Assembly (NCBI GenBank): GCA_021146325.1
Contig: GCA_021146325.1_4321.1
DNA: 45,885 nt
DNA from: a phage
Direction: 5' to 3' (one strand)
In this document: positions 3,748-4,913 of the stretch, one piece after another
How the letters are laid out: the number at the start of each line of letters is the position of its first letter
How positions within the stretch are numbered: the stretch's first letter is position 1
Made by a program: the position numbers and the translations under genes
The notes under the pieces: generated by a model
Seen by the model: the letters and a program-made list of their open reading frames with translations, nothing else
Database searches by the model: none
Told to the model about the DNA's origin: nothing

Positions 3748-3978
3748 ATGACTAACTTAATCAAACTTTCAATCATCGCAGCAGCAGCAATCATGATTGT
3801 AGGTTGTTCATCTGGTCATCGTCCGGATGGATGGTGCGCAACGCAAGCAAACGGCGTTTGCGTAGCTAAGTGGAAAAGCGGTGTGGTTGTACCAGCTGGT
3901 GAAGTTGATGTGCGCTACGATGGAATCAAAGGTCATGGTGGCTCAGTTCGTGACTATGGCTCTAAGGAGTGGAATTAA
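3748..3978 (+). CDS. small Cys-rich lipoprotein, possibly a Cor-like superinfection exclusion protein
   Basis: 76-aa ORF with lipobox IVGC after a hydrophobic signal peptide; sits beside host-range genes. Confidence 0.55.
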
Positions 3979-4913
3979 TGGCTCAGGGTATCTATATAGA
4001 CCTTAATGACGGAAGGAATCCAATGACAATTACCTCAGGGATGAGGGCGTTAAGCTTCGCTGGAAACTTTAACGTTAATAGTGGTGGCTTTAGTAAGACA
4101 TTCTCAATTAAGGGAAATGAAGGTGCATCACGTTTTTTAATTCCTAATAATGGTGCCTTCAGCTTCGAGCTTGACAGGGGTGTTGAGCTTTATTATATAA
4201 GTGGATTTTCATCAACACCTACATCTGGGACAATCTCAATAGGTTCAGTGAATGGATATTCTGACAGGGTCACGTCATTTTCAGGGACTGTTGTTGAGGT
4301 CTTGAGGGCATCAAGCGGCCATGGCATATACGTTGCTGATAGTAGTGATTTTGCATCAATAACAACTGCTGACAGGTTGCTAGTATGCAAGTACTCTAAA
4401 AGGGTAACTTTTACAGGTTCATTCAATCTCCCTATTTATGGAATACCGTTCGGTAAGTGGGATAATGGTGGAGTTTCAGTTGAGTACAACGGAAGCAACC
4501 AGCTTATTTGCACAAACATAAACACAGTAAATACTGGGAACACTCCTGGAACTGTTACACTTGACTTGCTAATATTTCAGTTGGTTACACCAACGCCTGG
4601 GCCTGGCATAAACATTTTCAACTCTAACAATGTTTGCACATTCTCAACATTGACAAGACCATTGGTTGTGTCTGGATTTATAAGTCTGTCAGGAAGCAAT
4701 CAATACATAGGTAGTTCATACTTCCCAATACTTAGATGTGGGTTTAACACAAGGGCGATACGTGCTTACAAGGAGTTGCGAAATAAGGGAATTGTTATGT
4801 CCGGTGGATACGTTAGATCTGGTACTGGATCAAGGATTTTGAGATACGTTATTGGTAATAGACCAGATGTAACCATATCAACTCCATTGCCATACTTGCC
4901 TGATATGTATTAA
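3978..4913 (+). CDS. hypothetical Gly/Ser/Thr-rich protein of unknown function
   Basis: 312-aa ORF from ATG 3978 (RBS AAGGAG); opposite strand to the tail module. Confidence 0.55.
   Translation: MAQGIYIDLNDGRNPMTITSGMRALSFAGNFNVNSGGFSKTFSIKGNEGASRFLIPNNGAFSFELDRGVELYYISGFSSTPTSGTISIGSVNGYSDRVTSFSGTVVEVLRASSGHGIYVADSSDFASITTADRLLVCKYSKRVTFTGSFNLPIYGIPFGKWDNGGVSVEYNGSNQLICTNINTVNTGNTPGTVTLDLLIFQLVTPTPGPGINIFNSNNVCTFSTLTRPLVVSGFISLSGSNQYIGSSYFPILRCGFNTRAIRAYKELRNKGIVMSGGYVRSGTGSRILRYVIGNRPDVTISTPLPYLPDMY

Follow-up and report, generated by a model that had tools for sequence, protein, structure and literature searches.

Small siphophages carry what Maffei et al. 2021 termed 'bona fide RBP loci', which lie directly downstream of the gene for the gpJ homologue and encode a receptor-binding protein (RBP) together with a cognate superinfection-exclusion protein (PMC8594841). 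The alleles of these loci track the terminal receptor across phage families and are exchanged horizontally (PMC8594841). Phages AugustePiccard and JeanPiccard were assigned to the bacterial outer-membrane protein LptD through resistant lptD mutants and phage Rtp was predicted to use the same receptor, while loci for FhuA, BtuB, YncD and LamB have other gene arrangements and proteins (PMC8594841; the T1 locus was also inspected here). The present analysis concerns positions 3748-4913 of a phage genome of 45,885 nucleotides (assembly GCA_021146325.1, contig GCA_021146325.1_4321.1; the whole stretch is called the window below), where genes for a 76-aa lipoprotein and a 311-aa protein lie beside the tail tip genes and on the opposite strand. 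Very probably, in our view, this region serves host recognition in a siphophage of the Braunvirinae (Rtp-like): it would encode an RBP and a matching superinfection-exclusion lipoprotein, and the two would be specific for LptDE, the lipopolysaccharide translocon of E. coli/Shigella.

Several members of this type of locus have since been characterized. The Rtp-like phage OzMSK depends on LptD, with an RBP just 39% identical to Rtp44, and the predicted folds within the RBP family are alike, showing two lectin-like beta-sandwiches with loops at the tip (Black et al. 2025; PMC13035648). The same authors suggest that the N-terminal base of the RBP docks on the C-terminus of J (PMC13035648). Dunbar et al. 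2025 solved the RBP of phage Oekolampad in the extracellular mouth of open-state LptDE; this protein (RBPOeko) is 33% identical to Rtp44, and Oekolampad uses LptD nonetheless (PMC12685063). Rtp45, the lipoprotein of phage Rtp, was solved in complex with LptDE; it sits between LptE and LptM on the periplasmic face of LptD, close to strands 5-8, and its hairpin, pushed up the LptD lumen, displaces loop 4 by up to 20 Å in a manner incompatible with RBP binding (PMC12685063). It is described as a superinfection-exclusion protein, and in this it is the functional counterpart of Cor and Llp. The authors of structure 9RPS report that the AlphaFold models of Rtp45 and of the Rtp45 complex were wrong (PMC12685063).

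A parallel outside this group is the T5 pair pb5 and Llp, which acts on FhuA. There too a tail-tip RBP is accompanied by a periplasmic lipoprotein, encoded by the adjacent gene, which prevents the receptor from binding the RBP. However, the sequences are unrelated (no cross-hit in Pfam or PHROG), the receptor is of another class, and the action of Llp on its TonB-dependent transporter is one of reverse allostery.

The predicted receptor-binding protein and its lipoprotein

The window is a Drexlerviridae (Braunvirinae) genome, with a structural region that shares 87-90% identity with phages CY1, ES and TR2. Unlike this structural backbone, the RBP locus is closest to JeanPiccard (81%) and BEK2/3, and all named relatives of both locus and backbone are phages of E. 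coli or Shigella. Both rightward open reading frames (ORFs) noted in a preliminary description of this DNA, which had been made from the letters alone, are present (Table 1).

The larger of the two proteins had been listed there as having 312 aa and no recognisable motif. Its actual length is 311 aa, the stop codon having been counted, and it matches Pfam PF20051 (DUF6453) at 1.1e-108, with 363 bits against a cut-off of 25. The ORF of 936 bp lies within the 930-960 bp used in the literature as a criterion for these RBP genes (PMC8594841; PMC13035648), and the reported richness in Gly, Ser and Thr holds (32.5% of residues). Its homologues all begin with MAQGIY and all have 311 aa; identity is 77% to Rtp44, 84% to bas02_0024 of JeanPiccard and 77% to bas01_0028 of AugustePiccard, each colinear without gaps, and the nearest database sequence is a metagenome protein (94%). 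These three predicted LptD-binding Braunvirinae RBPs share with the window protein both length and a locus downstream of gpJ, and differ from it in 16-23% of residues, mostly within 41-100 and 141-180. Against Rtp44, 70 of 311 positions differ, clustered in the same two segments. The best conserved part of the family is the N-terminus.

A search of sequences in the PDB returned 9rpt_C, the Oekolampad RBP on LptDE (also in 9RPW and 9RQI), at an E-value of 1.7e-41, with residues 1-311 aligned to 1-321. An AF2 model built with 20 homologues as input (pLDDT 82.9, pTM 0.84) is almost all beta-strand by DSSP, and when it was compared with PDB chains the sole significant match was again 9rpt_C (E 6.5e-17, TM 0.88, rmsd 2.4 Å), the next hit having an E-value of 0.14. 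The RBP of Oekolampad (Bas18), solved on open Shigella flexneri LptDE, therefore resembles the window protein in its DUF6453 assignment, in the full-length alignment and in a fold that superposes. It differs in sequence (23% identity over the structural alignment), in length (321 versus 311 aa, with gaps) and in lineage, being from a Dhillonvirus.

No signal peptide or transmembrane segment was found in the 311-aa protein, the maximum 19-residue hydropathy being 1.35 and the N-terminus hydrophilic. Entries of this family are variously labelled 'DUF6453', 'membrane protein', 'hypothetical protein' and, in the PDB, 'tail fiber protein', and PHROG 1265 is placed in the moron/host takeover category; NCBIfam has no model for either this protein or the lipoprotein. 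The 'membrane protein' label, used by PHROG 1265 and for RefSeq rtp44, was rejected because the sequence has no hydrophobic segment. Such labels trail the literature of 2021-2025, in which the family is identified as the LptD-binding RBP. By homology, then, the 311-aa protein is a virion receptor-binding protein orthologous to Rtp44, and not an exclusion or receptor-modifying factor. Its standing as the least understood gene in the region, as it had been presented, also does not hold, given that the family has been characterized genetically (Maffei 2021; Black 2025) and structurally (Dunbar 2025).

The smaller protein starts with MTNLIK, followed by a hydrophobic core (peak hydropathy 2.06 at residues 4-22, Kyte-Doolittle, 19-residue mean) and the lipobox IVGC with Cys20 and a Ser at +2. 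Under the +2 rule for lipoprotein sorting, a Ser in this position gives no inner-membrane retention. The claim of a 76-aa lipoprotein with this lipobox was thus confirmed, with Cys20 as the lipid-anchor residue, whereas 'Cys-rich' was an overstatement for a protein with three cysteines (Cys20, Cys30 and Cys38). PF24052 (Phage_lipoprotein) matches residues 1-75 at 9.9e-37 (125.2 bits, cut-off 27), phrog_4281 matches at 8.2e-32, and the PDB sequence search gave 9rps_D, which is Rtp45, at an E-value of 1.8e-44 over residues 1-76. In an alignment of seven Rtp45-type family members Cys30 and Cys38 are invariant (7/7).

Rtp45 of Escherichia phage Rtp (UniProt Q333D9; PDB 9RPS) is the closest described protein, having the same 76 aa, 92% identity, the lipobox and the Cys30/Cys38 pair (a disulfide in 9RPS), and its gene likewise lies directly upstream of the RBP gene and overlaps it. 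The two proteins are separated by six substitutions (I17M, H24P, N35S, S44N, H63S and G64S, window residue first). That at position 35 falls in strand 30-35, which in 9RPS is paired with LptD 318-323; over this strand the window has CATQAN and Rtp45 has CATQAS, five of six residues being identical. From this likeness the 76-aa lipoprotein would be expected to bind LptDE and to exclude LptD-dependent phages. As such, the earlier proposal that the pair forms an exclusion or receptor-modifying module stands for the lipoprotein as regards function, on its 92% identity to Rtp45 and the LptDE-Rtp45 structure, and fails for the 311-aa protein, a predicted virion RBP of the DUF6453 family.

The ATG of the RBP gene at 3978 shares one base with the stop codon of the lipoprotein gene (TAATG), and because of this overlap the two genes are probably translationally coupled. 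Each has its own ribosome-binding site (RBS), which is AAGGA, 10 nt before the ATG, for the lipoprotein gene and AAGGAG, 8 nt before the ATG, for the RBP gene.

In the mechanism that we propose, a phage-specific promoter cassette would drive both genes jointly, on the other strand from the tail genes. The 311-aa protein, which is without an export signal, would be mounted on the C-terminus of the J-like protein of the tail tip. In the next infection its loop-bearing tip would enter the extracellular mouth of LptD in the open state and engage extracellular loops 3-5 and 11, an engagement expected to trigger irreversible adsorption as was shown for the Oekolampad homologue. The 76-aa lipoprotein would be exported, lipidated on Cys20 and sorted, with its Ser at +2, to the inner leaflet of the outer membrane. 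There it would bind periplasmic LptD near strands 5-8, between LptE and LptM, with the hairpin reaching up the lumen and extracellular loop 4 moved by up to about 20 Å. Because loop 4 would be displaced in this way, the RBPs of LptD-targeting phages could not bind, which has been shown structurally for Rtp45 at 92% identity. Such a receptor block would protect the infected cell from superinfection and probably also spare the loss of progeny on lysed-cell debris. The two products would make a matched pair, in which the RBP binds LptD from outside in the next infection and the lipoprotein blocks LptD from inside in the current one.

The module, its receptor and the structural mechanism were already known from publications of 2021-2025. 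What the comparison adds is annotation: LptD is predicted as the terminal receptor of this phage, and the larger protein is no longer taken for an exclusion factor. LptD-targeting RBPs and exclusion proteins are relevant to phage engineering and to LptDE inhibitors, and a further natural RBP allele is one data point on the positions that tolerate change.

Relation to Cor and competing explanations

The lipoprotein had been called 'Cor-like'. Cor of T1, phi80, N15, HK022 and the mEp phages, a group of FhuA blockers, is similarly a lipoprotein of about 75 aa encoded next to tail-tip/RBP genes, and it is believed to act from the periplasm by blocking the receptor that the phage itself uses. Adjacency to tail-tip/RBP genes, common to Cor and the Rtp45-type proteins, is a shared genomic habit or function and no evidence of homology. 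The target of Cor is FhuA, a TonB-dependent transporter, on which it acts by allostery through the plug, whereas Rtp45-type proteins act on LptD by physical displacement of a loop.

A profile search for the Cor family had been proposed in the preliminary description, and when run it gave no similarity of the mature part of the lipoprotein to that family. The Cor PHROG (phrog_1119) matched the lipoprotein at an E-value of 0.019 over residues 6-34 only, and BLASTP against T1 Cor aligned residues 6-31 only, a stretch that extends just a few residues past the signal peptide and lipobox. Comparison by hhalign of the seven-member Rtp45-type profile with a five-member Cor profile (T1, aaroes, KarlBarth, ES18 and mEp043) was confined to columns 6-26, again signal peptide and lipobox. 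Additionally, AGYPF and a C-terminal Cys that pairs with a Cys near position 25, both invariant in the Cor alignment, are absent from the window lipoprotein and its relatives. T1 Cor in turn scored 17.7 bits on PF24052, under the cut-off of 27. Because in the PHROG profile, BLASTP, Pfam (on T1 Cor) and hhalign comparisons the match was limited to the signal peptide and lipobox region, membership in the Cor family was rejected, while the functional analogy of a small lipoprotein beside tail-tip genes that blocks a receptor was kept. A very remote link between Cor and the Rtp45 type may exist, and is conceivable given the 17.7 bits of T1 Cor.

Other accounts of the locus were weighed against an RBP and exclusion module directed at LptD. 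If both proteins acted inside the infected cell, with the larger as a second exclusion or modification factor, this would agree with the co-orientation, overlap and constant linkage of the genes, and with the 'membrane protein' name and moron/host-takeover class attached to the larger protein in PHROG 1265 and RefSeq. However, since the 311-aa protein has neither signal peptide nor transmembrane segment it should be unable to reach the envelope from inside the cell, the 'membrane protein' name is unsupported by its sequence, and from one phage family to another receptor specificity goes with the allele of the RBP gene (PMC8594841); we regard this explanation as extremely improbable. Only slightly less improbable is that the module is of this kind and serves a receptor other than LptD, or the divergent LptD of another host. 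The allele differs by 16-23% from those that were validated, with the 70 substitutions relative to Rtp44 clustered as described, and RBP loci are exchanged horizontally, which is reflected in the different nearest relatives of the locus (JeanPiccard, 81%) and the backbone (CY1/ES/TR2, 87-90%). Yet far more divergent members of the family (33-43%; Oekolampad and OzMSK) keep the use of LptD, and the cognate lipoprotein is 92% identical to a protein solved on LptDE. The E. coli or Shigella origin of all named relatives likewise argues against a different receptor or host, as does the different make-up of the FhuA, BtuB, YncD and LamB loci in arrangement and proteins.

A proposal compatible with the LptD module keeps the mechanism and places the selected benefit of the lipoprotein in the protection of progeny from irreversible adsorption to receptor in the debris of lysed cells. 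This benefit was reportedly proposed for Rtp45 by Wietzorrek and co-workers in 2006, and it was likewise proposed for Llp of T5. It would suit a lipoprotein expressed along with the RBP, a late structural protein, for the probable translational coupling of the genes through the TAATG overlap would have the lipoprotein made alongside virions. Both benefits are named in the Dunbar paper (PMC12685063); they follow from one and the same receptor blockade and are inseparable by sequence analysis, so that we hold the debris benefit as the selected one to be possible and somewhat doubtful. A further refinement, which we think rather unlikely, is that the diverged RBP allele recognises other LptD loop variants, giving altered host range or escape from known lptD resistance mutations, while the conserved lipoprotein cross-excludes all LptD-targeting phages. 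If that were true, the two halves of the module would evolve under opposite regimes.

Certain points weigh against an LptD-directed RBP and exclusion module. For this phage the use of LptD, the presence of the RBP in virions and exclusion by the lipoprotein are all assigned by homology; attachment of the RBP to J is presumed for the DUF6453 family, and the promoter activity and operator function of the upstream cassette in the window are likewise presumed. The fine specificity of the RBP could differ from that of Rtp44, because the 70 differences between the two cluster in residues 41-100 and 141-180. Plating with Rtp45-expressing cells was not found in the accessible literature, and the role of Rtp45 rests on the structure of the complex and on genomic position.

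Synteny and the tail-tip partner

The gene order seen in the window was compared with seven related loci, namely those of Rtp, JeanPiccard, AugustePiccard and TR2, two metagenome contigs and one E. coli chromosomal contig. In 7/7 of these a PF24052 lipoprotein gene is followed, with a one-base overlap, by a PF20051 RBP gene, and the pair is convergent on J. RBP identity to the window across these loci falls as low as 41%, in the two metagenome contigs. TR2 (L008) has a lipoprotein 88% identical to that of the window and an RBP of just 43% identity, and in one metagenome contig (L006) a lipoprotein of 86% identity is adjacent to an RBP of 41%. From the contrast in TR2 a breakpoint or divergence boundary is suggested at the junction of the lipoprotein and RBP genes, which agrees with the report of Maffei et al. 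that alleles of the RBP are exchanged horizontally (PMC8594841). The contrast in conservation could reflect either a recombination boundary or unequal constraint, the periplasmic face of LptD being conserved and its extracellular loops variable.

The E. coli chromosomal copy is located in GCA_012249605.1, on the 176-kb contig AASAVZ010000008.1 (L005, 65437-76372), and is presumably part of a prophage. Its lipoprotein and DUF6453 pair, with an RBP 63% identical to that of the window, is flanked by a J-like gene (1266 aa) and a Peptidase_S74 tail-fibre gene (1221 aa). Because the pair is found in a chromosomal contig, LptD-type RBP modules probably occur in prophages as well. Homologues P0040 and P0043 are likewise from E. 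coli chromosomes.

The J-like protein of the window was identified by the Pfam profiles FNIII-A_GpJ, Phage-tail_3 and Phage_Tail_Tip and by NCBIfam lambda_TipJ at 9.2e-118. Its last ~45 residues (window 4945-5080 (-), with the pattern YA.SGNFAFNGTNNTVQINGNGITVNLP.GG.V.VGTF) are kept in all LptD-type loci examined, unlike in T1 J, and are conserved even beside RBPs that are 41-63% identical. The J C-terminus and the RBP N-terminus are both conserved, which makes the former a candidate for the site where the RBP docks with its N-terminal base; the conservation fits such docking and is not proof of it.

Table 1. Coordinates of the features of the locus and of the repeated upstream cassette in the window
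Feature	Position	Strand	Basis or remark
Cassette and conserved 5' leader	3662..3747	+	operator/promoter-like repeat upstream of the lipoprotein gene; promoter function presumed
Predicted Rtp45-type superinfection-exclusion lipoprotein, 76 aa	3748..3978	+	PF24052, 9rps_D match, 92% identity to Rtp45
Predicted tail-tip RBP of 311 aa, predicted LptD binder	3978..4913	+	PF20051/DUF6453, Rtp44 orthologue
Hairpin, G+C-rich 8-bp stem, 4-nt loop	4918..4937	both strands	likely bidirectional intrinsic terminator
J-like protein of the tail tip (1136 aa), on which the RBP presumably docks	4942..8352	-	Pfam and NCBIfam profiles
Cassette copies	1270-1283(-), 2914-2927(+), 3662-3675(+), 26570-26583(-), 29964-29977(+), 30744-30757(+), 34200-34213(-), 37791-37804(-)		motif search

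Flanking elements and neighbouring genes

The terminator that had been described as facing the J gene was found as a hairpin lying where the RBP and J genes converge, between their stop codons at 4913 and 4942. It has the form AAAGCCCC-TTTC-GGGGCTTT, begins five bases past the RBP stop, is followed after five further bases by the J stop, and was picked up by a terminator scan on the minus strand. Folding energies are -16.1 (+) and -14.4 (-) kcal/mol (z -3.8 and -4.8, 0 shuffles being as stable), and U-rich (T-rich) tails flank the hairpin on both strands, so that it is likely a bidirectional intrinsic terminator. Three ORFs on the minus strand (3808..3936, 4193..4426 and 4577..4699) were rejected as spurious, being short, nested in the two genes and unannotated in Rtp, JeanPiccard and AugustePiccard; no homology search was made with them.

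Upstream of the lipoprotein gene the preliminary description had named a 'promoter cassette', which was borne out as a repeated element: the motif AATAGCACGAATAG occurs in 8 copies in the window (with at most 2 mismatches) against 0.32 expected by chance. The copies lie approximately 55-85 nt before an ATG, the distance being 73 nt for the lipoprotein gene. They take the form AAYAGCACKAATWG(c/a)TAAA, followed by weak -35/-10-like hexamers and then by an RBS and ATG, and in four or five of the 8 the leader TACTCCATCGAAACGAAA is present. The best copies are imperfect palindromes, TAGCAC-TAA-TTGCTA (TAGCAC-N3-TTGCTA).

In the copy that precedes the lipoprotein gene (3662-3680) the order is AATAGCACGAATAGATAAA, AAGACA-16 nt-TATCAT (3679-3706), TACTCCATTGAAACGAAAC and AAGGA, and its conserved leader reads TACTCCAT(C/T)GAAACGAAAC. 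This cassette is conserved ahead of the lipoprotein gene in Rtp, JeanPiccard, AugustePiccard, TR2 and one metagenome contig, in the lytic relatives irrespective of which gene precedes it, and the copy of the locus in the E. coli chromosome lacks it. A generic scan of the region for sigma-70 promoters gave 5 hits against 7.9 expected. Because sigma-70-like hits are not above chance, we claim a repeated and conserved cassette and not a proven promoter, although the eight copies together look like a phage-specific set of operators or promoters. The Rtp genome paper of Wietzorrek et al. from 2006 reportedly describes ten inverted repeats, conserved and located upstream of genes, for which Rtp52 was proposed as the regulator. 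The eight-copy cassette is possibly the same as those inverted repeats linked to Rtp52.

The gene upstream, at 2957..3679, encodes a Dcm-like C5-cytosine methyltransferase (PHROG 757 at 2.3e-83; the Pfam DNA_methylase match is weak), and its 3' end overlaps the first 18 nt of the 3662..3747 cassette. It is bracketed by a 19-nt direct repeat of the cassette motif (2914-2932 and 3662-3680). Rtp, BEK1-1 and P818 are without this gene; in Rtp, accordingly, none precedes the lipoprotein gene, and the homology of these three phages to the window starts exactly at the second repeat (3661-3663). On account of the flanking repeat and of this starting point of homology, the methyltransferase gene looks like a cassette that was inserted or exchanged by recombination between promoter cassettes.

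Elsewhere in the window, an ORF at 98..517 (-) of 139 aa occupies the position of the putative single-stranded DNA-binding protein of Rtp (rtp49), beside Erf-like and exonuclease genes. It gave no Pfam hit at E <= 0.001. The protein ends in DDIPF, the classic C-terminal tip of single-stranded DNA-binding proteins, and 21 uninterrupted glutamines (mixed CAA/CAG) replace the usual flexible linker. T1-like phages are reported to carry one arginyl-tRNA, and a single tRNA-Arg (anticodon CCT) was identified in the window at 25528-25603 (-) by both ARAGORN and Rfam.

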